NCBI RefSeq assembly: GCF_055900595.2 | Contig: NZ_CM148325.1 | Direction: 5' to 3' (one strand) | Length of the DNA: 64,000 bases | In this document: in pieces, positions 37,140 through 58,013 of the stretch | Position numbering within the stretch: position 1 is the stretch's first letter | Layout of the letters: each line of letters begins with the position of its first letter | Translations under genes and position numbers: made by a program | Notes under the pieces: generated by a model | The model's input: the letters and a program-made list of their open reading frames with translations, nothing else | Databases searched by the model: none | What the model was told of the DNA's origin: nothing

Positions 37140-37162
37140 GGTATAACAGGTATAAAGGTATA
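37140..37162 (+). promoter_or_regulatory. NanR operator: three direct GGTATA repeats of the nanA promoter region
   Basis: GGTATAACAGGTATAAAGGTATA, i.e. GGTATA three times at 11-bp spacing, the known NanR binding repeat. Confidence 0.8.
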
Positions 37163-37176
37163 TCGTTTATCAGACA

Positions 37177-37185
37177 AGCATCACT
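37177..37185. repeat. IS10 target-site duplication, left copy
   Basis: AGCATCACT immediately outside the IS10 outside end; identical to the 9 bp at 38515-38523. Confidence 0.9.
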
Positions 37186-37230
37186 CTGATGAATCCCCTA
37201 ATGATTTTGGTAAAAATCATTAAGTTAAGG

Positions 37231-37300
37231 TGGATACACATCTTGTCATATGATCAAATGGTTTCGCCAAAAATCAATAATCAGACAACAAAATGTGCGA
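37231..37300 (-). ncRNA. IS10 antisense RNA-OUT (from pOUT); position inferred from the canonical IS10 map
   Basis: In canonical IS10, pOUT fires outward from about element position 115 and RNA-OUT ends near position 46. These are mapped onto the window by offset; no independent signal was checked. A dam GATC site at the pIN -10 region (CATATGATCAAATGG) is present. Confidence 0.45.
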
Positions 37301-38501
37301 ACTCGATATTTTACACGACTCTCTTTACCAATTCTGCCCCGAATTACACTTAAAACGACTCAACAGCTTAACGTTGGCTTGCCACGCCTTACTTGACTGT
37401 AAAACTCTCACTCTTACCGAACTTGGCCGTAACCTGCCAACCAAAGCGAGAACAAAACATAACATCAAACGAATCGACCGATTGTTAGGTAATCGTCACC
37501 TCCACAAAGAGCGACTCGCTGTATACCGTTGGCATGCTAGCTTTATCTGTTCGGGCAATACGATGCCCATTGTACTTGTTGACTGGTCTGATATCCGTGA
37601 GCAAAAACGGCTTATGGTATTGCGAGCTTCAGTCGCACTACACGGTCGTTCTGTTACTCTTTATGAGAAAGCGTTCCCGCTTTCAGAGCAATGTTCAAAG
37701 AAAGCTCATGACCAATTTCTAGCCGACCTTGCGAGCATTCTACCGAGTAACACCACACCGCTCATTGTCAGTGATGCTGGCTTTAAAGTGCCATGGTATA
37801 AATCCGTTGAGAAGCTGGGTTGGTACTGGTTAAGTCGAGTAAGAGGAAAAGTACAATATGCAGACCTAGGAGCGGAAAACTGGAAACCTATCAGCAACTT
37901 ACATGATATGTCATCTAGTCACTCAAAGACTTTAGGCTATAAGAGGCTGACTAAAAGCAATCCAATCTCATGCCAAATTCTATTGTATAAATCTCGCTCT
38001 AAAGGCCGAAAAAATCAGCGCTCGACACGGACTCATTGTCACCACCCGTCACCTAAAATCTACTCAGCGTCGGCAAAGGAGCCATGGATTCTAGCAACTA
38101 ACTTACCTGTTGAAATTCGAACACCCAAACAACTTGTTAATATCTATTCGAAGCGAATGCAGATTGAAGAAACCTTCCGAGACTTGAAAAGTCCTGCCTA
38201 CGGACTAGGCCTACGCCATAGCCGAACGAGCAGCTCAGAGCGTTTTGATATCATGCTGCTAATCGCCCTGATGCTTCAACTAACATGTTGGCTTGCGGGC
38301 GTTCATGCTCAGAAACAAGGTTGGGACAAGCACTTCCAGGCTAACACAGTCAGAAATCGAAACGTACTCTCAACAGTTCGCTTAGGCATGGAAGTTTTGC
38401 GGCATTCTGGCTACACAATAACAAGGGAAGACTCACTCGTGGCTGCAACCCTGCTTACTCAAAATCTATTCACACATGGTTACGTTTTGGGGAAATTATG
38501 A
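37293..38501 (+). CDS. IS10 transposase
   Basis: 402 aa, [151 protein letters not shown]..., recognised as the IS10/Tn10 transposase. Full length with no frameshift. Confidence 0.97.
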
Positions 38502-38514
38502 GGGGATCTCTCAG

Positions 38515-38523
38515 AGCATCACT
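38515..38523. repeat. IS10 target-site duplication, right copy
   Basis: AGCATCACT, identical to 37177-37185. Confidence 0.9.
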
Positions 38524-38535
38524 TCAGAGGTATTT

Positions 38536-39429
38536 ATGGCAACGAATTTACGTGGCGTAATGGCCGCACTCCTGACTCCTTTTGATCAACAACAAGCACT
38601 GGATAAAGCGAGTCTGCGTCGCCTGGTTCAGTTCAATATTCAGCAGGGCATCGACGGTTTATACGTGGGTGGTTCTACCGGCGAAGCCTTTGTACAAAGC
38701 CTTTCCGAGCGTGAACAGGTACTGGAAATCGTCGCCGAAGAGGCGAAAGGCAAGATTAAACTCATCGCCCACGTCGGTTGCGTCAGCACTGCTGAAAGCC
38801 AACAACTTGCGGCATCGGCTAAACGTTATGGCTTCGATGCCGTCTCCGCTGTCACGCCGTTCTACTATCCTTTCAGCTTTGAAGAACACTGCGATCACTA
38901 TCGGGCAATTATTGATTCGGCGGATGGTTTGCCGATGGTGGTGTACAACATTCCGGCGTTAAGCGGCGTTAAACTGACCCTGGATCAGATTAACACTCTG
39001 GTTAAGTTGCCTGGTGTCGGCGCGCTGAAACAGACCTCTGGCGATCTCTATCAGATGGAGCAGATCCGTCGTGAACATCCGGATCTGGTGCTCTATAACG
39101 GTTACGACGAAATCTTTGCTTCTGGTTTGTTGGCGGGCGCTGATGGTGGTATCGGCAGTACTTACAACATCATGGGCTGGCGTTATCAGGGTATCGTGAA
39201 GGCGCTGAAAGAAGGCGATATCCAGACCGCGCAGAAGCTGCAAACCGAATGTAATAAAGTCATTGATTTACTGATCAAAACGGGCGTATTCCGCGGCCTG
39301 AAAACGGTCCTGCACTATATGGATGTCGTTTCTGTGCCGCTGTGCCGCAAACCGTTTGGTCCGGTCGATGAAAAATATCTGCCAGAACTGAAGGCGCTAG
39401 CCCAGCAGTTGATGCAAGAGCGCGGGTGA
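38536..39429 (+). CDS. nanA: N-acetylneuraminate lyase
   Basis: 297 aa from [52 protein letters not shown].... The six-frame ORF's extra 20 N-terminal codons run into the IS10 inside end. Confidence 0.96.
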
Positions 39430-48800: not shown

Positions 48801-50452
48801 GGGTCGATTGGCGGGTTGGTGACCTGCGCAAACTGCTGGCGGAAGTAGTCGTAAATAATGCGCGGCTGGCTGGAGAGCACGGCGAATGGGGTATCATCGC
48901 CCATCGAACCGACGGCTTCCTGACCGTTTTCACCCAGTACGCGAATTACGGAGTCCAGCTCTTCCGCGCTGTAGTTAAACTGTTTCTGGTAGCTGGCAAG
49001 TGTGTCGTCGTCCAGTTCGCGGCTACCCACTTCTTCATCGGGCAGATCTTCAAACGGTACCAGACGGCGGACGTTTTTCTCCATCCACTCTTTATATGGA
49101 TGGCGGCTTTTCAGATCGTCATCGGTTTCTGCCGAGTGCAGAATACGCCCACTGCGGGTGTCGATAACCATCAGTTCGCCTGGCCCCACTCGGCCTTTTT
49201 CGACCACTTCGTCAGGCTGATAATCCCAGATGCCCACTTCAGAGGCGCAGGTGATGAGCTTATCTTTGGTGATGACGTAGCGCGCCGGACGCAGACCGTT
49301 ACGGTCGAGGTTACAGGCGGCAAAACGACCATCGGACATCACGATCCCCGCCGGGCCATCCCACGGCTCCATATGCATGGAGTTAAAGTCAAAGAAGGCA
49401 CGCAGTTCCGGGTCCATATCCGGGTTGTTCTGCCAGGCGGGTGGTACTAACAGACGCATGGCGCGGATGATATCCATCCCGCCCGCCAGCAGCAGTTCCA
49501 GCATGTTATCCATGGAACTGGAGTCAGAGCCGGTTTCGTTGACGAACGGCGCGGCGTCGTGCAGGTCAGGGATCAGCGGTGTCTGGAATTTATAAGTACG
49601 GGCGCGCGCCCATTGGCGGTTACCGGTGATGGTGTTGATTTCACCGTTATGCGCCAGGTAGCGGAACGGCTGCGCCAGCGGCCAGCGCGGTACGGTGTTA
49701 GTGGAGAAGCGCTGGTGGAACAGGCAGATGGCCGATTCCAGACGCAGGTCCGCGAGGTCCAGGTAGAAGCGCGGCAGATCCGCCGGCATACACAGACCTT
49801 TATAGATGTTCACCAGATTCGACAGGCTACAGACGTAGAAGTCTTTGTCAGCTTCGAGACGCTTTTCAATGCGGCGGCGGGCGATAAACAGACGGCGCTC
49901 CATATCGCGCGGACGCCAACCTGCCGGGGCGTTCACAAAAATTTGCTCAATGCGTGGCAGAGAGGAGAGGGCGATTTCACCCAGCACGCCTTCGTTAGTG
50001 GGGACATCACGCCAGCCGACAATCGACAACGTTTCGCGTTGCAGCTCTTCTTCAACGATGCGGCGTGCGGTCGCGGCGAGTTCAGGATCTTTATTCAGGA
50101 AAAGCATCCCGACGGCGTAGTTTTTCGCTAAACGCCAGCCTCGCTCCTGCGCAACAATGCGAAAAAAGCGATCCGGTTTTTGTAACAGCAAGCCGCAACC
50201 GTCACCGGTTTTACCATCGGCGAGAATCGCGCCACGGTGCTGCATGCGGGCCAGTGCGTGTATTGCAGTACGCACTACCTTGTGGCTAGGTTCGCCTTCT
50301 ATGTGGGCGATCAGGCCGAAACCACAGTTATCCCTCTCAAGGGATTTATCGTACAACATATCGTGAACCTCCCCCAGGCTCTGCGGGAACCCCACTTCCG
50401 AACCGCTGCGCACGGGCACAGAAAGAGCGTGGCGACGGGGTTTGCGTTTCAT
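45899..50452 (-). CDS. gltB: Glutamate synthase (NADPH) large subunit
   Basis: 1517 aa from MKRKPRRHALSVPVRSGSEVGFPQSLGEVHDMLYDKSLERDNCGFGLIAHIEG.... Start chosen to match the K-12 precursor length as I recall it. Confidence 0.95.
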   Translation of the reverse strand: MKRKPRRHALSVPVRSGSEVGFPQSLGEVHDMLYDKSLERDNCGFGLIAHIEGEPSHKVVRTAIHALARMQHRGAILADGKTGDGCGLLLQKPDRFFRIVAQERGWRLAKNYAVGMLFLNKDPELAATARRIVEEELQRETLSIVGWRDVPTNEGVLGEIALSSLPRIEQIFVNAPAGWRPRDMERRLFIARRRIEKRLEADKDFYVCSLSNLVNIYKGLCMPADLPRFYLDLADLRLESAICLFHQRFSTNTVPRWPLAQPFRYLAHNGEINTITGNRQWARARTYKFQTPLIPDLHDAAPFVNETGSDSSSMDNMLELLLAGGMDIIRAMRLLVPPAWQNNPDMDPELRAFFDFNSMHMEPWDGPAGIVMSDGRFAACNLDRNGLRPARYVITKDKLITCASEVGIWDYQPDEVVEKGRVGPGELMVIDTRSGRILHSAETDDDLKSRHPYKEWMEKNVRRLVPFEDLPDEEVGSRELDDDTLASYQKQFNYSAEELDSVIRVLGENGQEAVGSMGDDTPFAVLSSQPRIIYDYFRQQFAQVTNPPIDPLREAHVMSLATSIGREMNVFCEAEGQAHRLSFKSPILLYSDFKQLTTMKEEHYRANTLDITFDVTKTTLEATVKELCDKAEQMVRSGTVLLVLSDRNIAKDRLPVPAPMAVGAIQTRLVDQSLRCDANIIVETASARDPHHFAVLLGFGATAIYPYLAYETLGRLVDTHAIAKDYRTVMLNYRNGINKGLYKIMSKMGISTIASYRCSKLFEAVGLHDDVVGLCFQGAVSRIGGASFEDFQQDLLNLSKRAWLARKPISQGGLLKYVHGGEYHAYNPDVVRTLQQAVQSGEYSDYQEYAKLVNERPATTLRDLLAITPGENAVNIADVEPASELFKRFDTAAMSIGALSPEAHEALAEAMNSIGGNSNSGEGGEDPARYGTNKVSRIKQVASGRFGVTPAYLVNADVIQIKVAQGAKPGEGGQLPGDKVTPYIAKLRYSVPGVTLISPPPHHDIYSIEDLAQLIFDLKQVNPKAMISVKLVSEPGVGTIATGVAKAYADLITIAGYDGGTGASPLSSVKYAGCPWELGLVETQQALVANGLRHKIRLQVDGGLKTGVDIIKAAILGAESFGFGTGPMVALGCKYLRICHLNNCATGVATQDDKLRKNHYHGLPFKVTNYFEFIARETRELMAQLGVTRLVDLIGRTDLLKELDGFTAKQQKLELSRLLETAEPHPGKALYCTENNPPFDNGLLNAQLLQQAKPFVDERQSKTFWFDIRNTDRSVGASLSGYIAQTHGDQRLAADPIKAYFNGTAGQSFGVWNAGGVELYLTGDANDYVGKGMAGGLIAIRPPVGSAFRSHEASIIGNTCLYGATGGRLYAAGRAGERFGVRNSGAITVVEGIGDNGCEYMTGGIVCILGKTGVNFGAGMTGGFAYVLDESGDFRKRVNPELVEVLSVDSLAIHEEHLRGLITEHVQHTGSQRGEEILANWSTFATKFALVKPKSSDVKALLGHRSRSAAELRVQAQ

Positions 50453-51033
50453 ACGCGCGCCTCGCATTCGCCCCCTTGTTGTCCTTTTCGCATCGATTAA
50501 TACGGTGAAGAGGGGATCTCAATTACTGCATAAATATGATGAGCAGGCTGCTCATCCAGAAAGCTTCCAGCGGATTTCCAACTTATCGGGAAAGCTGATA
50601 CAGGTCAAATGGCAAGCTTATTGGTACAGAAATGTGCTTTAGCGCAAAATTCTTTATTAATTTATTGAAATTAAAAAGGATTTGTTAATTAAGTTGAAAA
50701 GAGGCGTCGTTAGGGAAACAGTCAATTCCTGACTGTCATAAAGGCGTGTTAACCCTTATCCTGCCTTGAACTGACGAGAAAGGCAGTATTTTATACTGCA
50801 TTAATTGGTAATGACGTTTCATGCTACTGTTTTTGCCTAAAATCCATAAGGAGATAAAAAAATCTGACACAAGATAAGCAAAAGTGATTTATGTGATTAT
50901 GAATGAAATTTCGGTAATTTTGATTGATTATGCAATTGATAAAAGCAGGCTGGGACGATTGATCCAGGTCATCGCCGAATTGAGCTAAAAATGGCAGGCT
51001 TTGGCCTCTTTTCAAGGCGCGGTCTATCAGATT

Positions 51034-51963
51034 ATGCAGTTACAGAAATTAGTCAATATGTTTGGTGGTGATCTCACCCGTCGTTATGGGCAAAAGGTGC
51101 ATAAGCTGACGCTGCACGGCGGTTTTAGCTGCCCTAACCGTGACGGAACCATCGGGCGAGGTGGCTGCACATTCTGTAATGTTGCCTCGTTTGCCGATGA
51201 AGCGCAGCAGCATCATTCCATTGCCGAGCAACTGGCGCACCAGGCGAATTTAGTTAACCGCGCTAAACGCTATCTGGCCTACTTTCAGGCGTATACCAGC
51301 ACCTTTGCCGAAGTTCAGGTGCTGCGTTCTATGTATCAGCAGGCGGTGAGCCAGGCCAATATTGTCGGTTTGTGTGTTGGTACCCGCCCGGACTGCGTGC
51401 CGGATGCGGTGCTGGATCTGCTTTGCGAATATAAGGACCAGGGCTACGAAGTGTGGCTGGAGCTGGGGCTACAAACCGCCCACGACAAAACGCTGCATCG
51501 CATCAATCGCGGTCATGATTTTGCCTGCTATCAGCGCACGACGCAGCTGGCGCGTGAGCGCGGGCTGAAGGTGTGTTCTCACTTAATTGTCGGCCTGCCT
51601 GGCGAAGGGCAGGCTGAATGTTTGCAAACGCTGGAGCGAGTGGTTGAAACCGGCGTGGACGGCATAAAGCTGCATCCGCTACATATAGTAAAAGGCAGCA
51701 TTATGGCGAAAGCCTGGGAAGCGGGGCGTTTGAACGGTATTGAACTGGACGATTACACGCTCACTGCCGGAGAAATGATTCGCCATACGCCACCGGAAGT
51801 GATCTACCACCGCATTTCCGCCAGCGCCCGTCGCCCGACGCTGCTTGCTCCGCTGTGGTGCGAAAATCGATGGACGGGAATGGTCGAGCTGGATCGCTAT
51901 CTGAATGAACATGGCGTACAGGGATCGGCGCTGGGACGTCCGTGGCTACCTCCAACGGCGTAG
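51034..51963 (+). CDS. yhcC: Radical SAM protein YhcC
   Basis: 309 aa from MQLQKLVNMFGGDLTRRYGQK..., with Cys-rich motifs (CPNRDGTIGRGGCTFC). Confidence 0.88.
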   Translation: MQLQKLVNMFGGDLTRRYGQKVHKLTLHGGFSCPNRDGTIGRGGCTFCNVASFADEAQQHHSIAEQLAHQANLVNRAKRYLAYFQAYTSTFAEVQVLRSMYQQAVSQANIVGLCVGTRPDCVPDAVLDLLCEYKDQGYEVWLELGLQTAHDKTLHRINRGHDFACYQRTTQLARERGLKVCSHLIVGLPGEGQAECLQTLERVVETGVDGIKLHPLHIVKGSIMAKAWEAGRLNGIELDDYTLTAGEMIRHTPPEVIYHRISASARRPTLLAPLWCENRWTGMVELDRYLNEHGVQGSALGRPWLPPTA

Positions 51964-52058
51964 GCCATTGAGGGGAATTCCGCATTTCTCACACAATTTA
52001 TAACGTAACTGTCAGAATTGGGTATTATTGGGGCAGGTTGTCGTGAAGGAATTCCCTA

Positions 52059-54395
52059 ATGAAGCAAATTCGTCTGCTGGCGCAGTATTATGTTGACCTG
52101 ATGATGAAGTTAGGTCTGGTGCGCTTCTCAATGTTGCTGGCGCTGGCCCTCGTCGTTCTTGCCATTGTTGTACAAATGGCAGTGACCATGGTGCTGCATG
52201 GTCAGGTCGAAAGCATTGATGTTATTCGTTCTATCTTCTTTGGTTTGCTGATTACGCCGTGGGCGGTCTACTTTCTATCGGTGGTCGTCGAGCAACTGGA
52301 GGAGTCACGACAACGTCTGTCACGGCTGGTGCAAAAACTGGAGGAGATGCGCGAGCGCGATTTGAGCCTCAACGTTCAGTTAAAAGATAATATTGCCCAG
52401 CTAAATCAGGAAATTGCCGTTCGTGAAAAAGCGGAAGCAGAACTGCAGGAAACCTTCGGCCAACTGAAAATTGAAATTAAAGAGCGCGAAGAGACACAAA
52501 TTCAGCTCGAGCAGCAATCCTCATTCTTACGTTCCTTCCTTGATGCTTCACCCGACCTGGTTTTTTATCGTAACGAAGATAAAGAGTTTTCCGGCTGTAA
52601 CCGCGCGATGGAGCTGCTGACCGGAAAAAGCGAAAAACAACTGGTTCACCTGAAACCTGCTGATGTTTACTCACCGGAAGCCGCTGCGAAAGTCATTGAA
52701 ACCGATGAAAAAGTGTTCCGTCATAATGTGTCACTGACCTATGAGCAGTGGCTGGATTATCCCGACGGACGCAAAGCCTGCTTTGAAATCCGTAAAGTGC
52801 CGTACTACGACCGCGTGGGTAAACGTCACGGTTTGATGGGCTTTGGTCGTGACATTACCGAGCGTAAGCGGTATCAGGATGCACTTGAACGCGCCAGCCG
52901 CGACAAAACGACGTTTATTTCCACCATCAGTCACGAATTGCGTACACCGCTGAACGGTATCGTCGGCCTGAGTCGCATTCTGCTGGATACCGAACTCACC
53001 GCCGAGCAGGAAAAATATCTCAAAACCATCCATGTTTCTGCCGTCACGCTGGGGAATATCTTCAACGATATTATCGACATGGATAAGATGGAACGGCGCA
53101 AGGTCCAGCTTGATAATCAGCCGGTTGATTTCACCAGCTTCCTTGCCGATCTGGAAAATCTCTCCGCATTGCAGGCGCAACAGAAAGGATTGCGCTTTAA
53201 TCTGGAGCCGACGCTGCCATTACCGCATCAGGTCATTACCGACGGGACGCGTTTACGGCAGATCCTGTGGAATCTCATCAGTAACGCCGTCAAATTCACC
53301 CAGCAAGGCCAGGTTACCGTGCGCGTGCGCTACGATGAAGGCGATATGCTGCATTTTGAAGTGGAAGACTCTGGTATCGGCATTCCGCAGGATGAGCTGG
53401 ATAAAATCTTCGCCATGTATTACCAGGTGAAAGACAGTCACGGCGGTAAGCCCGCCACTGGCACCGGTATTGGTCTGGCCGTTTCTCGTCGTCTGGCGAA
53501 AAATATGGGCGGCGATATTACGGTTACCAGCGAACAGGGCAAAGGTTCCACCTTTACGTTGACGATCCACGCACCGTCGGTAGCAGAAGAGGTTGATGAT
53601 GCGTTTGATGAAGACGATATGCCTTTACCGGCGCTGAATGTGCTGCTGGTGGAAGACATTGAACTGAACGTGATTGTCGCACGCTCTGTGCTGGAAAAAT
53701 TAGGTAACAGCGTTGATGTCGCCATGACCGGCAAGACGGCGCTGGAGATGTTTAAACCGGGCGAATACGACCTGGTGTTGCTGGATATTCAGTTGCCAGA
53801 TATGACCGGGCTGGATATCTCTCGTGAACTGACGAAGCGATATCCGCGCGAGGATTTACCACCGCTGGTAGCCTTAACCGCTAACGTGCTGAAAGACAAA
53901 CAAGAGTACCTCAATGCTGGAATGGATGATGTGCTGAGTAAGCCGCTTTCTGTTCCAGCGCTAACCGCGATGATCAAGAAATTCTGGGATACCCAGGATG
54001 ATGAGGAGAGCACGGTGACGACAGAAGAGAACAGTAAATCAGAAGCATTGCTCGATATTCCCATGCTGGAACAGTATCTCGAACTTGTAGGACCGAAGCT
54101 GATTACCGACGGGTTAGCGGTGTTTGAGAAGATGATGCCGGGCTATGTGAGTGTACTGGAGTCGAACCTGACGGCGCAGGATAAAAAAGGCATCGTCGAG
54201 GAAGGGCATAAAATTAAAGGCGCGGCGGGTTCAGTGGGGTTACGCCATCTGCAACAGCTGGGTCAGCAAATTCAGTCTCCTGACCTTCCTGCGTGGGAAG
54301 ATAACGTCGGTGAATGGATTGAAGAGATGAAAGAAGAGTGGCGTCACGACGTAGACGTGTTGAAAGCGTGGGTGGCAAAAGCCACAAAAAAATGA
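52059..54395 (+). CDS. arcB: Aerobic respiration control sensor kinase ArcB (hybrid histidine kinase)
   Basis: 778 aa with transmembrane segments, PAS, HisKA (SHELRTPLN), HATPase, receiver and HPt domains. Confidence 0.96.
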   Translation: MKQIRLLAQYYVDLMMKLGLVRFSMLLALALVVLAIVVQMAVTMVLHGQVESIDVIRSIFFGLLITPWAVYFLSVVVEQLEESRQRLSRLVQKLEEMRERDLSLNVQLKDNIAQLNQEIAVREKAEAELQETFGQLKIEIKEREETQIQLEQQSSFLRSFLDASPDLVFYRNEDKEFSGCNRAMELLTGKSEKQLVHLKPADVYSPEAAAKVIETDEKVFRHNVSLTYEQWLDYPDGRKACFEIRKVPYYDRVGKRHGLMGFGRDITERKRYQDALERASRDKTTFISTISHELRTPLNGIVGLSRILLDTELTAEQEKYLKTIHVSAVTLGNIFNDIIDMDKMERRKVQLDNQPVDFTSFLADLENLSALQAQQKGLRFNLEPTLPLPHQVITDGTRLRQILWNLISNAVKFTQQGQVTVRVRYDEGDMLHFEVEDSGIGIPQDELDKIFAMYYQVKDSHGGKPATGTGIGLAVSRRLAKNMGGDITVTSEQGKGSTFTLTIHAPSVAEEVDDAFDEDDMPLPALNVLLVEDIELNVIVARSVLEKLGNSVDVAMTGKTALEMFKPGEYDLVLLDIQLPDMTGLDISRELTKRYPREDLPPLVALTANVLKDKQEYLNAGMDDVLSKPLSVPALTAMIKKFWDTQDDEESTVTTEENSKSEALLDIPMLEQYLELVGPKLITDGLAVFEKMMPGYVSVLESNLTAQDKKGIVEEGHKIKGAAGSVGLRHLQQLGQQIQSPDLPAWEDNVGEWIEEMKEEWRHDVDVLKAWVAKATKK

Positions 54396-54507
54396 CCCCG
54401 GCTAGACCGGGGTGCGCGAATACTGCGCCAACACCAGGGAAATCTTGGCTGCGCCGTAAATTTTTATGATGAGTTACAAGGGCACAGCACTTTTTTTCAG
54501 GCCGCAC
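54386..54507 (-). ncRNA. arcZ: sRNA ArcZ (RyhA/SraH), convergent with and overlapping the arcB 3' end
   Basis: The minus strand reads GTGCGGCCTGAAAAAAAGTGCTGTGCCCTTGTAACTCATCAT...GGCGCAGTATTCGCGCACCCCGGTCTAGCCGGGGTCATTTTTTT, matching the ArcZ sequence and its terminator as I recall them. Confidence 0.85.
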
Positions 54508-54624
54508 GCAGTTAAGATAGCAAAACTTAAATGATTTGTTACATGAATCAGTTAAATGTGTGATGCGTAGCATTTTTATTAAAAAAATTAATGTGTTTCA
54601 GTCAATTGCGAAAGGATGATCACA

Positions 54625-55278
54625 ATGAAGAAAATTGGCGTAATTCTGAGCGGATGCGGCGTCTATGACGGTTCTGAAATTCATGAAGCGGTGTTGACGT
54701 TGTTAGCTATTTCACGCAGTGGTGCGCAGGCGGTCTGCTTTGCACCGGATAAGCAGCAGGTTGATGTAATCAATCATTTAACTGGCGAAGCGATGCCGGA
54801 AACGCGCAATGTGCTGATTGAAGCGGCACGAATAACGCGCGGTGAAATCCGTCCTCTGGCTCAGGCCGATGCCGCTGAACTGGATGCGTTGATTGTGCCG
54901 GGGGGGTTTGGTGCGGCGAAGAATTTAAGCAACTTTGCCCGTCTGGGGAGTGAATGCACCGTTGAGCGTGAATTACAGGCGCTGGCGCAAGCGATGCATC
55001 AGGCCGGAAAACCGCTTGGTTTTATGTGTATTGCCCCGGCGATGCTGCCGAAAATTTTCGATTTCCCGCTGCGTTTGACCATCGGTACTGATATCGATAC
55101 CGCAGAAGTGCTGGAGGAGATGGGCGCGGAGCATGTGCCGTGTCCTGTCGATGATATCGTGGTTGATGAAGACAATAAGATTGTCACCACCCCGGCATAT
55201 ATGCTGGCGCAGAACATTGCAGAAGCGGCGAGCGGCATTGATAAGCTGGTTTCCCGCGTGCTGGTTCTGACTGAATGA
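54625..55278 (+). CDS. elbB: ElbB, DJ-1/PfpI-family glyoxalase-like protein
   Basis: 217 aa from [24 protein letters not shown].... Confidence 0.9.
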
Positions 55279-56003
55279 GTAAAAGCCGCTTAACGGTGTT
55301 TAGTTTCGTTCGCCGTTTTCTTCTACGGTTAATGGTTGTCCTCGCCGTTTTCTGGGGCGGGGGCATCGCGTTGTTTAGCGTTGCGCCTGTTCCTTTCTCA
55401 GCGGTAATGGCCGAGCGACAAGTCAGCGCCTGGCTGCATGGCAATTTTCGTTACGTGGCACATTCTGACTGGGTCAGTATGGATCAAATCTCGCCGTGGA
55501 TGGGACTGGCGGTGATTGCCGCAGAAGATCAGAAGTTTCCTGAGCACTGGGGCTTTGATGTCGCTTCCATTGAGCAAGCCCTGGCGCACAACGAGCGCAA
55601 TGAAAACCGTATTCGCGGTGCTTCAACGATTTCTCAGCAGACAGCCAAAAATCTCTTTTTATGGGATGGGCGTAGCTGGGTTCGAAAAGGGCTGGAAGCT
55701 GGATTAACGCTGGGGATAGAAACAGTCTGGAGCAAAAAGCGTATCCTGACGGTTTACCTGAATATCGCCGAATTTGGCGACGGTGTGTTTGGCGTCGAAG
55801 CTGCGGCACAACGTTATTTCCACAAACCCGCGAGCAAACTTACCCGGTCGGAAGCTGCGTTACTGGCTGCCGTATTACCTAATCCACTGCGTTTCAAAGT
55901 CTCCGCGCCATCGGGCTATGTGCGTAGCCGTCAGGCGTGGATTTTACGGCAGATGTATCAGTTAGGCGGTGAGTCGTTTATGCAACAACACCAGCTGAAT
56001 TAA
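55275..56003 (+). CDS. mtgA: Monofunctional peptidoglycan glycosyltransferase
   Basis: 242 aa with a transglycosylase motif (..[12 protein letters not shown]..). Start overlaps the elbB stop. Confidence 0.93.
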
Positions 56004-56632
56004 GCTTCGCGCGAAGTGAGGGCCAGCGTTTTGCTCTCACGTGGTTGCAGATCTTTCTGTAGGGCAATAGCCAGTGCCGGCTGGGCGATAAACCGTTTCC
56101 ATAACCGCTCTTGCTTTCGCTGACAACACCACTTTGACCAGGTCGCCAGTGGAATCAACGTGCTTTCACCAATGTTGTCGCAGACGACGGGGATAACCTC
56201 TGACTCACTGATGCGGTGACAGAGGATATTCTGCGGCTTCAACGACATCGTCACGATATGGTTATCCTGCAAATAACGTTTCAGCTGTTTCAGTAACTGG
56301 CGCAGCTGTGCAACGTCTTCTTCGTAACGGCATTGTTCTGCAAATTCGGTCAGCGTAACGGAGGGCTTACCGTCGAAATCGGCAATCACATCGTAGACAT
56401 AACCCGTTCCGCAATCCGTCTCCACGGTACCGTGATAGCGCGGTATTCCACTCCAGTCTTTTAACCGGCGACCAAGATGCGCGTAATACTTTAACTCACG
56501 GCGGATCTCTTTATCACCACCATCACCACGGTTGTAGACAATCTTGATACAGCGTTGGGCATCTTCCGGATGCGCATAACATTTCCGATGTCTTCCGGTG
56601 CCCAGGGGATTTTGTTCAGATAAGCGAATCAT
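56000..56632 (-). CDS. yrbL: YrbL (PhoP-regulon protein, kinase-like fold)
   Basis: 210 aa from [33 protein letters not shown].... The six-frame ORF is extended at the N-terminus. Confidence 0.85.
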
Positions 56633-56844
56633 ACCATCTCCTGGAAATATTTTCTGACGATCTCCAGTATGGTCAAATAACTTAAACAAAACCTAAACAA
56701 TGCCTCTTAAGGTTTTCTTAAGGTTCTTCTGAAAGTGAAAAGCGCACAAAATGTACAATTTCCGTCATTAATAACGATTTCAGTACGCGCTTTTTTTATT
56801 GTCGGGGGGAGCTTGAAGGGATTTGTATGTCAAAGTGATGAAAA

Positions 56845-57117
56845 TTAATCTTCATCAAAACCAGAGTTAAAGAGGGCGATAACGGCGGCCAGTGCTTCCT
56901 CTTCCTGTGGACCGGTCGCTTCGACTTCAATCTGCCGTCCTTTGGCAGAATCCAGCATCAGCAGCGCAATAACGCTGTTGGCTTCAGCTTCAGTGCCTTC
57001 ATCGTTACGTAACAGCACTTCAGCGTCAAAACCCTGCATTAATTCAAACAGCTTCATTGCAGGCCGGGCATGCATGCCCAGCTTGTTTGTGATTTCAACC
57101 GTTTGCTTGACGGTCAT
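56845..57117 (-). CDS. npr: Phosphocarrier protein NPr (PtsO) of the nitrogen PTS
   Basis: 90 aa, [30 protein letters not shown]... (HPr-like). Confidence 0.95.
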
Positions 57118-57968
57118 GGTTTACGTTTTTCCAGCGTACGATGGCGTGACTGGACGTTTTTACCGCGTGAACGGAAGTAGTCTGCCAACTGCTCTGCAAT
57201 ATACACCGAACGGTGCTTCCCGCCAGTACAACCAATGGCGACCGTCAGGTAGCTACGGTTGTTGGTTTCCAGCATAGGTAACCATAGCTCAAGATAGCTT
57301 CGCGTCTGGTAAATAAAATTGTGTACTTCTGTGTGGCGGTCGAGGAATGCGGCGACAGGCTTATCAAGACCTGTCATCGGACGCAGTTTTGGATCCCAGT
57401 GCGGGTTCGGCAAGAAGCGCACGTCAAAGACGTAATCTGCATCGATAGGGATACCGTGTTTGAAGCCGAAAGACTCAAAGACCATGGTCAGTTCGCGTTC
57501 ACGTTTACCCAGTAAACGGGTACGCAACATTTCTGCCAGCTCGTGAACGGACATTTCTGAGGTATCGACAATCAGATCCGCTCGCGAACGCAGTGGTTCC
57601 AGTAGATCGCTTTCTTTGTCGATAGCACTTTCCAGCGACAGGTTTTTGCTGGAAAGCGGATGCAGGCGGCGCGTGTCACTGTAACGACGAATTAAGGTAT
57701 TACGGTCGGCATCCAGGAACAGGAGTTGCGGTGAGAAAGCGTCAGGTAGGTTACTCATCGCCTGTTCGAATATTTCTGGTGACTCCGGCATATTACGAAC
57801 ATCAATGCTGACGGCGGCAGAAATCTCGCGATCGGCCAGAGTTCGAGCCAGATCGGGTAACAACACTACGGGGAGGTTATCCACGCAGTAAAAACCCATA
57901 TCTTCCAGCGCACGAAGGGCGACAGATTTACCTGAACCTGAACGTCCGCTGACGATCATCAGTACCAT
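57114..57968 (-). CDS. rapZ: RNase adaptor protein RapZ (YhbJ)
   Basis: 284 aa with Walker A GRSGSGKS. Confidence 0.95.
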
Positions 57969-58013
57969 GTACTGTTTCTCCTCACAACGTCTAAAAGAGA
58001 CATTACCGAATAA

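Follow-up and report, generated by a model that had tools for sequence, protein, structure and literature searches.

The feature analysed here is almost certainly the arcZ gene of Escherichia coli, which encodes a small RNA (about 121 nt) with a transcript of its own and is situated between arcB and elbB, on the opposite strand from arcB. It was studied in a window of 64,000 nucleotides (the whole stretch of DNA analysed, from contig NZ_CM148325.1 of RefSeq assembly GCF_055900595.2), the host of which is E. coli. We base the identification on the score against the Rfam family RF00081 (ArcZ), the near-identity to b4450 of K-12, the terminator, and the conserved layout of the locus; no observation speaks against it. 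The Rfam model matches the minus strand at 54400-54507 with 118.7 bits (E 1.9e-27), far over its gathering score of 66, and the alignment covers model positions 1-106 of 106, hence without truncation, the model itself ending within the terminator loop. In the whole window the Rfam scan returns two matches only, and ArcZ is one of them. When aligned to arcZ of K-12 MG1655, 118 of 121 nt are identical, with three differences, and the locus, the length, the terminator and the convergent 9-nt overlap with the stop codon and two Lys codons of arcB are the same. By this homology the gene runs from its 5' G at 54507, a start derived from the K-12 annotation, to 54387, which makes 121 nt, or 122 nt if an extra U (54386) is transcribed.

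A preliminary description of this DNA had placed ArcZ and its terminator on the minus strand at 54386-54507, and had proposed an Rfam scan and an alignment to the MG1655 gene as checks. Both were run, with the results given above; the strand is confirmed by the Rfam match and by a terminator found on the minus strand only, and the coordinates are right within 1 nt. The same description had regarded the reciprocal ArcB/ArcZ arrangement as already known, which is in accordance with a review of 2024, where arcZ lies downstream of arcB and points in the opposite direction, with a Rho-independent terminator at its end, and where the 3' ends of the two genes usually overlap by about ten bases (PMC11331407). 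In the window the gene order is arcB(+), arcZ(-), elbB(+), identical to that of MG1655 (Table 1). The RefSeq/PGAP record of a sequence 100% identical to the window annotates only arcB (product: sensor histidine kinase ArcB), elbB, mtgA and yrbL, while arcZ is absent. This shows that automated annotation and ORF-based scans miss the gene, and it agrees with the earlier remark that an ORF scan easily overlooks it. On the whole, the arcZ of the window is an already known gene in its ordinary location. ArcZ, also named SraH or RyhA (formerly sraH and ryhA for the gene), has been known since 2001 and is characterised in detail, and among 5426 complete E. coli genomes 5416 carry the arcZ region (at least 95% identity). 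The practical value of the finding is in annotation, and it has little importance as a discovery. As a separate observation on this strain, a strain-specific IS10 is located in the nanA leader.

Table 1. Features of the arcB-arcZ-elbB locus, with positions in the window
Feature	Position	Strand	Basis
arcB	52059..54395	+	ORF list; 778 aa, ends ...VAKATKK-stop; convergent partner of arcZ
arcZ, primary transcript	54386..54507	-	Rfam and alignment to MG1655 b4450
Active 3' fragment of ArcZ after processing, some 56-58 nt	54386..54443	-	Alignment to K-12
UCA and U7 tail of ArcZ, shared with arcB	54386..54395	-	Sequence; overlap of 9 nt in K-12 annotation
Terminator G+C stem-loop CCCCGG-UCUAG-CCGGGG, nt 96-112	54396..54412	-	Terminator scan and folds
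Seed/core CCCUGGUGUUGGCGCA, nt 69-84	54424..54439	-	Exact match
RNase E consensus site A-G↓A-U-U (RN↓WUU)	54441..54445	-	Sequence present; predicted cut between 54444 and 54443
5' stem-loop of precursor, nt 20-27 with nt 53-60	54448..54488	-	Rfam consensus helix (alignment structure line)
Putative -10 TATCTT, at -12 to -7 relative to 54507, the start by K-12 homology	54514..54519	-	4/6 match to TATAAT
Putative -35 GTAACA, 17-bp spacer to -10	54537..54542	-	4/6 match to TTGACA
Upstream block, about -36 to -62, ...GCATCACACATTTAACTGATTCAT..., candidate regulator-binding region	54543..54569	-	Phylogenetic footprint
elbB	54625-55278	+	ORF list and RefSeq annotation

Processing of ArcZ and the allele of this strain

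For ArcZ sequences, the review gives RN↓WUU as the RNase E consensus and requires CCCUGGUGUUGGCGCA after it (PMC11331407). In the window AG↓AUU (54445-54441) precedes the core (54439-54424), just in the order which that review asks for. The 5' stem-loop lies in the 5' half, which is poorly conserved and is removed by processing. Folded alone, the processed form reaches -20.6 kcal/mol (z -2.5), and in this fold the seed, which is the first 15 nt, is left unpaired, a small hairpin (GCGC/GCGC) comes next, and the terminator comes last. The fold of the precursor (z -2.9) has its 5' part paired with the conserved 3' region in the MFE structure. These folds are in line with the proposal in the literature that the seed is released by cleavage (PMC11331407).

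Compared with K-12 arcZ, the window has C>A at nt 15 (54493) and U>A at nt 44 (54464), both in the 5' part removed by RNase E and both outside the 5' stem, and its U-tail has 7 residues where that of K-12 has 6, with an extra T at 54386 that corresponds to a synonymous change (ACT>ACA) in arcB codon Thr776. Within the 121 nt annotated in K-12 the processed 3' ArcZ is identical, so that target pairing should be unchanged. It may still be asked whether this arcZ allele differs from that of K-12 in stability, termination or processing. Such a reading is favoured by the three differences themselves and by the minority status of the allele, as only 638 of the 5416 genomes have at least 99% identity over the 235-nt arcZ region; in addition, G90A alone abolishes ArcZ processing in Dickeya solani, showing that point mutations can matter (PMC10168573). 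However, both internal SNPs fall in unpaired parts of the discarded 5' half, K-12 has the same seed, RNase E site, small hairpin and terminator stem, and U-tails of 6, 7 and 8 are all natural in other species. We consider an altered allele very unlikely.

Terminator and overlap with arcB

The terminator scan detects a site on the minus strand only, with its stem at 54413-54395 (8 pairs) and CATTTTTTTG after it. It was suggested in the preliminary description that the terminator hairpin overlaps the stop codon region of arcB. This holds in part: an overlap does exist, made up of the UCA and the U-tail, but the G+C stem is outside the stop codon. Actually, the stem string CCCCGGCTAGACCGGGG (54396-54412) directly abuts the arcB TGA (54393-54395) without any base in common, and the optional A-U closing pair 54413/54395 is the sole contact of the stem with the TGA, namely with its third base. 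The overlap segment consists of ArcZ nt 113-121/122 (UCA and U6-7) at 54395-54386/7, and 54386..54395 is the reverse complement of AAA AAA TGA together with position 3 of the Thr codon; on the side of arcB it takes in both final Lys codons as well as the stop, which is 9 nt by K-12 homology and 10 nt with the extra U. A double constraint acts on the two final codons of arcB and on its stop, as they also template the U-tail of ArcZ.

The position of the hairpin directly after the stop codon, and its symmetry, which lets it form in arcB mRNA as well, might suggest that the region is only the 3' UTR and terminator of arcB, with no separate RNA gene on the minus strand. Against this, the T-run after the hairpin is present on the minus strand only, the plus-strand stem being followed by UGCGCGAA, and the terminator scan finds no plus-strand terminator for arcB. 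Furthermore, the roughly 100 nt that lie past the hairpin agree with a curated sRNA model and include a conserved promoter-like block, and a separate ncRNA is annotated here in K-12, so this possibility is extremely slight. The plus-strand counterpart of the 5' stem-loop was also considered as a terminator of arcB and rejected: its loop is large, a C-A mismatch is present, and the fold of 54380-54530 (+) is no better than that of shuffled sequence (z -1.5).

Conservation across Enterobacterales

The locus of arcZ was then compared among other Enterobacterales, with the core CCCUGGUGUUGGCGCA plus a downstream GCGC as the search pattern. The pattern gives 120 matches, from which seven were dropped, including one locus cut at the end and six chance matches (Streptomyces, two Ensifer, Marinimicrobium, Rubrivivax, and one gammaproteobacterial MAG). 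Among the 113 ArcZ loci recovered, 110 have a convergent arcB homologue. The stop codon is nested between the stem and the U-tail in 84 of these 110 loci, with an overlap of 9-11 nt and with ArcB ending in KK, where a few arcB stop positions are possibly artefacts of frame extension (for example L022, L113 and L119). Elsewhere, namely in Pectobacterium and in most loci of Pantoea, Tatumella, Rosenbergiella, Mixta and Hafnia, the end of arcB is displaced, from an overlap of 2 nt to a separation of about 184 nt, in agreement with a remark of the review on the layout in Pectobacterium carotovorum (PMC11331407).

As to the RNA itself, the orthologues from Salmonella, Citrobacter, Enterobacter, Yersinia, Serratia, Photorhabdus/Xenorhabdus, Dickeya and Erwinia have the invariant core CCCUGGUGUUGGCGC...GCGC, as in the window, and the columns flanking the core, which are not fixed by the search pattern, are invariant or nearly so. 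They also have in common a terminator of the form ACCCC...GGGGU(C/U)AU5-9, the interior of whose stem differs via compensatory changes, while their 5' halves are unalignable between families. The structure tested, that is, the terminator and the GCGC hairpin, is shown to be 97% paired overall. For the terminator helix, 95.9% of cells are paired in 44 distinct sequences, and 4 of the 9 pairs are changed on both sides, for example from GG/CC to AA/UU. A protein-coding reading, raised by a 119-aa minus-strand ORF (54214-54573) that spans the whole region and is present in the six-frame list, was rejected and has next to no chance of being right, as the ORF is antisense to the coding end of arcB, crosses the arcZ promoter and has no RefSeq gene at its place, and as a conserved frame is excluded by the unalignable 5' half and by start-to-core distances of 64, 65, 67, 68 or 69 nt among close genera, the differences of which are not multiples of three.

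Promoter of arcZ and the ArcB/ArcZ loop

Upstream of the arcZ start, the putative -10 is invariant in 15 Enterobacteriaceae promoter sequences, and the putative -35 lies within the block CTGATTCATGTAACAA, which is kept across genera with one variant sequence (L090). The conservation of the block further upstream spans Escherichia, Citrobacter, Enterobacter, Leclercia, Pseudocitrobacter and Salmonella. A generic sigma-70 promoter scan of 54200-54700 gives nothing above threshold. Judged from the sequence, the putative arcZ promoter is a conserved, weak, sigma-70-like one, which is recognisable only via its conservation and the K-12 start site. With regard to ArcA, the upstream block holds two TGTTA-like half-sites on the plus strand, TGTTA at 54537-54541 and TGTGA at 54559-54563, which are 22 bp apart. 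The scan for ArcA boxes (TGTTA-N6-TGTTA, 11-bp spacing) over 54470-54640 on both strands yields no match of at least 8/10, a level at which the whole window holds 56 TGTTA-repeat matches. The literature is split on direct binding of ArcA at this promoter: ArcA-P is said to bind it in the review (PMC11331407), while ArcA ChIP-seq detected no site upstream of arcZ (PMC3798270). As there is neither a convincing ArcA box nor a ChIP-seq site, direct repression by ArcA is not readable from the sequence; the upstream block may be a target of ArcA.

According to the review, ArcA/ArcB repress arcZ and ArcZ represses arcB (PMC11331407), and the literature describes ArcZ as Hfq-dependent, processed by RNase E and an activator of rpoS. 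Following the literature on the family, the primary transcript would bind Hfq via its terminator and U-tail, and RNase E would cut it at AG↓AUU (54444↓54443) to give a 3' fragment of about 56 nt, whose single-stranded seed would pair with targets encoded outside the window, so that translation of rpoS would go up and flhDC, mutS and others would be repressed. In low oxygen, ArcB/ArcA-P would repress arcZ and ArcZ would in turn lower the expression of arcB, forming a feedback loop. That this loop is mediated by antisense pairing via the 3' overlap is speculation only in the literature (PMC11331407), and the annotated overlap of 9-10 A/U-rich nt alone is too weak for a stable antisense duplex.

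It is useful here to compare the locus with GadY-gadX, a cis-antisense pair of sRNA and mRNA with overlapping 3' ends in E. coli. As in GadY-gadX, an sRNA gene faces a regulator gene tail-to-tail, has partial complementarity to the 3' end of that gene, and feeds back on its pathway. Unlike GadY, ArcZ acts mainly in trans, its seed is not complementary to arcB, and the complementarity within the annotated genes is limited to that short overlap. From the frequency of the nesting (84 of 110 loci in Enterobacterales, with ArcB always ending in KK) it might be supposed that the placing of the arcB stop between the stem and the U-tail of ArcZ is selected and not accidental, with readthrough arcB transcripts serving as a cis-antisense sponge or degradation partner of ArcZ; we regard this as improbable. 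If it is true, the arcB transcripts that run past the hairpin, which has no U-tract on the plus strand, would have complementarity to ArcZ over most or all of its length. In this strain the nt 15 C>A change creates a plus-strand T7 run (54491-54497) immediately behind the plus-strand counterpart of the 5' stem-loop, and on the same supposition this run could move the ends of arcB transcripts, and hence the balance of the ArcB/ArcZ loop.

Identity, boundaries and allele of arcZ

Over its whole length, the window has two Rfam matches and no tRNA genes. The scan of 50000-58000 gives one match, ArcZ (RF00081), on the minus strand at 54400-54507. Its score of 118.7 bits exceeds the gathering score of 66, its E-value is 1.9e-27, and the alignment covers model positions 1-106 of 106 untruncated. 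Because this model stops within the terminator loop, the true 3' end of ArcZ needs another source. In E. coli K-12 MG1655, arcZ (b4450) lies at 3350577-3350697 (+) and arcB at 3350689-3353025 (-), with a 9-nt overlap; the minus strand of the window aligns to this arcZ region with 98% identity, and this homology sets the gene at 54507-54387, one nucleotide longer (54386) if the extra U is counted. The preliminary description had placed ArcZ at 54386-54507, correct to within 1 nt on K-12 homology, and both checks that it proposed, the covariance model and the alignment to MG1655, are positive; its finding is correct, and the content is already known.

The 901 bases around arcZ are found with at least 95% identity in 5416 of 5426 complete E. 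coli genomes (100% in eight). Three differences from MG1655 lie in arcZ or at its border (see the table). A functionally altered allele is unlikely, because all three are outside the processed core and the stems, and U-tails of 6 to 8 are natural in other loci.

The gene had also been called easy to miss, and this holds for the PGAP/RefSeq record NZ_CP098223.1, 100% identical in the part equivalent to window 52500-56400, which lists arcB, elbB, mtgA and yrbL without arcZ. Unlike this annotation, the hand-curated MG1655 record does include arcZ.

The other Rfam match, RNA-OUT, belongs to a complete IS10 of 1329 bp (37186-38514; flanks examined at 37140-37185 and 38515-38540), flanked by the 9-bp target duplication AGCATCACT. 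It is located between three GGTATA repeats (NanR-operator-like, 37140-37162) and a nanA-like ORF (ATG 38537), which places it in the sialic-acid operon leader. The insertion appears strain-specific, since its junction is covered in none of the 5426 complete E. coli genomes, and it may alter nanATEK expression.

Features of arcZ and of IS10 in the window (ArcZ nt counted from 54507)
Feature	ArcZ nt	Window position	Strand	Remark
Putative -35 GTAACA		54542-54537	minus	-35 to -30 from K-12-derived start; 4/6 consensus; 17-bp spacer to -10
Putative -10 TATCTT		54519-54514	minus	-12 to -7; 4/6 consensus
C>A	15	54493	minus	alignment to MG1655
5' stem-loop	20-27 with 53-60	54488-54448	minus	Rfam consensus; both internal SNPs at unpaired positions
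U>A	44	54464	minus	alignment to MG1655
RNase E consensus AG/AUU (predicted cut at slash)	63-67	54445-54441	minus	core immediately after
Conserved core CCCUGGUGUUGGCGCA	69-84	54439-54424	minus	
Small GCGC/GCGC hairpin	80-94	54428-54414	minus	
Terminator stem-loop CCCCGG-UCUAG-CCGGGG	96-112	54412-54396	minus	
UCA	113-115	54395-54393	minus	
U7 tail	116-122	54392-54386	minus	
A>T directly past K-12's U6 tail		54386		U7 tail in window; arcB ACT>ACA, Thr kept
IS10 terminal inverted repeats		37186-37207 and 38493-38514		
IS10 transposase ORF		37293-38501	plus	402 aa
RNA-OUT		37231-37300	minus	Rfam match inside IS10

The overlap with arcB and its conservation

In the window, arcB is the ORF 52059-54395 (+) of 778 codons, ending in VAKATKK and TGA (54393-54395). 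The preliminary description had the terminator hairpin overlapping the region of this stop codon. The 3' end of ArcZ does overlap the stop, through the UCA and U-tail, the complement of AAA AAA TGA, but the hairpin string quoted there (54396-54412) only abuts the codon and excludes it, the optional closing A-U pair 54413/54395 being the only hairpin contact with TGA, at its last base. This is a small correction of wording, with the substance untouched. The annotated overlap amounts to 9-10 nt and is A/U-rich.

Searching the species-representative genomes for the core pattern CCCTGGTGTTGGCGCN7GCGC gave at least 120 loci, and of the 120 matches listed, 113 were kept after leaving out six chance matches outside Enterobacterales and one locus cut at its end. 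Among these matches listed, all 113 have ACCCC...GGGGU(C/U/A)A and then 5-9 consecutive U, and 110 have a convergent arcB homologue beside them (tblastn, query the C-terminal 200 residues of the window ArcB). Of the 110, 84 have the arcB stop, read as reverse complement (TCA in 60, TTA in 24), placed precisely where the stem ends and the U-run begins, with an overlap of 9-11 nt; Lys-Lys-stop ends ArcB in all 84 nested species, and therefore the ArcZ U-tail and the ArcB C-terminus constrain each other. The other 26 of the 110 listed, mostly Pantoea, Tatumella, Rosenbergiella, Mixta, Hafnia, Pluralibacter and Pectobacterium, have the stop elsewhere, anywhere between an overlap of 2 nt and a separation of about 184 nt. 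This pattern matches the 2024 review, in which the overlap occurs as a rule, though not in Pectobacterium carotovorum (PMC11331407). UCA ahead of the U-run is kept in 23 of the 26 non-nested loci listed, which suggests that ArcZ itself requires it or that it is left over from a nested arrangement.

In an alignment of 44 distinct ArcZ 3' halves, the tested structure has 97% of its cells paired, and the terminator helix 95.9%; sliding the partner by 1-3 columns lowers pairing to 29-43%. Changes on both sides occur in four of nine terminator pairs (GC to AU, CG to UA). The GCGC hairpin, fixed by the search pattern and unable to vary, says nothing either way.

The generic terminator scan picks up the ArcZ site exactly, on the minus strand only, and finds no U-tract after the hairpin on the plus strand. 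At 54491-54497 (+), the nt 15 change turns the plus-strand CTGTTTTTC of K-12 into CTTTTTTTC, so that a T7 run closely follows the antisense copy of the ArcZ 5' stem-loop. This run could in principle influence the ends of arcB read-through transcripts, but the region's plus-strand fold is unremarkable and lends the idea no significant backing (z -1.5). Antisense action of arcB mRNA on ArcZ is speculation only in the literature (PMC11331407), and the 3' overlap may have a function in itself.

The promoter region

The arcZ hexamers stay under the threshold of the generic promoter scan. From about -62 to -1, 15 sequences of Escherichia, Citrobacter, Enterobacter, Leclercia, Pseudocitrobacter and Salmonella are almost invariant, and they diverge farther upstream; such conservation supports a functional promoter with a putative regulator site. 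The sequence shows no convincing ArcA box: in 54470-54640, TGTTA repeats at 11-bp spacing never reach 8/10 matches. ArcA ChIP-seq reports no site there (PMC3798270); the review has ArcA-P binding the arcZ promoter (PMC11331407). Plus-strand TGTTA (54537-54541) and TGTGA (54559-54563) are 22 bp apart, a spacing reported for additional repeats in the ChIP-seq paper (PMC3798270), and we only infer that they may be ArcA sites.

The divergent genes arcZ and elbB are separated by 117 bp (54508-54624), from the arcZ start at 54507 to the elbB start codon at 54625. Since the generic scan gives no elbB promoter in 54508-54624, elbB may be transcribed from a weak promoter that shares sequence with the arcZ control region, or by arcB read-through across arcZ.

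The strand on which the U-tract lies, the match to a curated Rfam model and the conserved promoter-like stretch contradict a reading of the region as purely the arcB 3' UTR. Contradicted as a coding sequence, too, is the 119-aa antisense ORF 54214-54573: in close genera the start-to-core distance is 64-69 nt and varies by amounts not divisible by three, and the 5' halves are unalignable.

Predicted folding and reported regulation of ArcZ

Family membership, gene boundaries, terminator and overlap of arcZ are shown here, and so is the conservation of its layout and promoter region. The RNase E site and core are the features listed for the unique cleavage yielding the active ArcZ of about 56 nt (PMC11331407). 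The full-length RNA is predicted to fold at -42.9 kcal/mol (z -2.9), its MFE structure pairing the 5' part with the conserved 3' region, and the first 15 nt of the processed form are predicted to be unpaired; these models agree with the published hypothesis of a seed released by cleavage (PMC11331407). According to the literature (PMC11331407; also PMC10168573), the Hfq-dependent precursor would be processed by RNase E to the form of about 56 nt, alone active, which would activate rpoS and repress other targets; in low oxygen ArcB/ArcA would repress arcZ, and ArcZ would in turn repress arcB.
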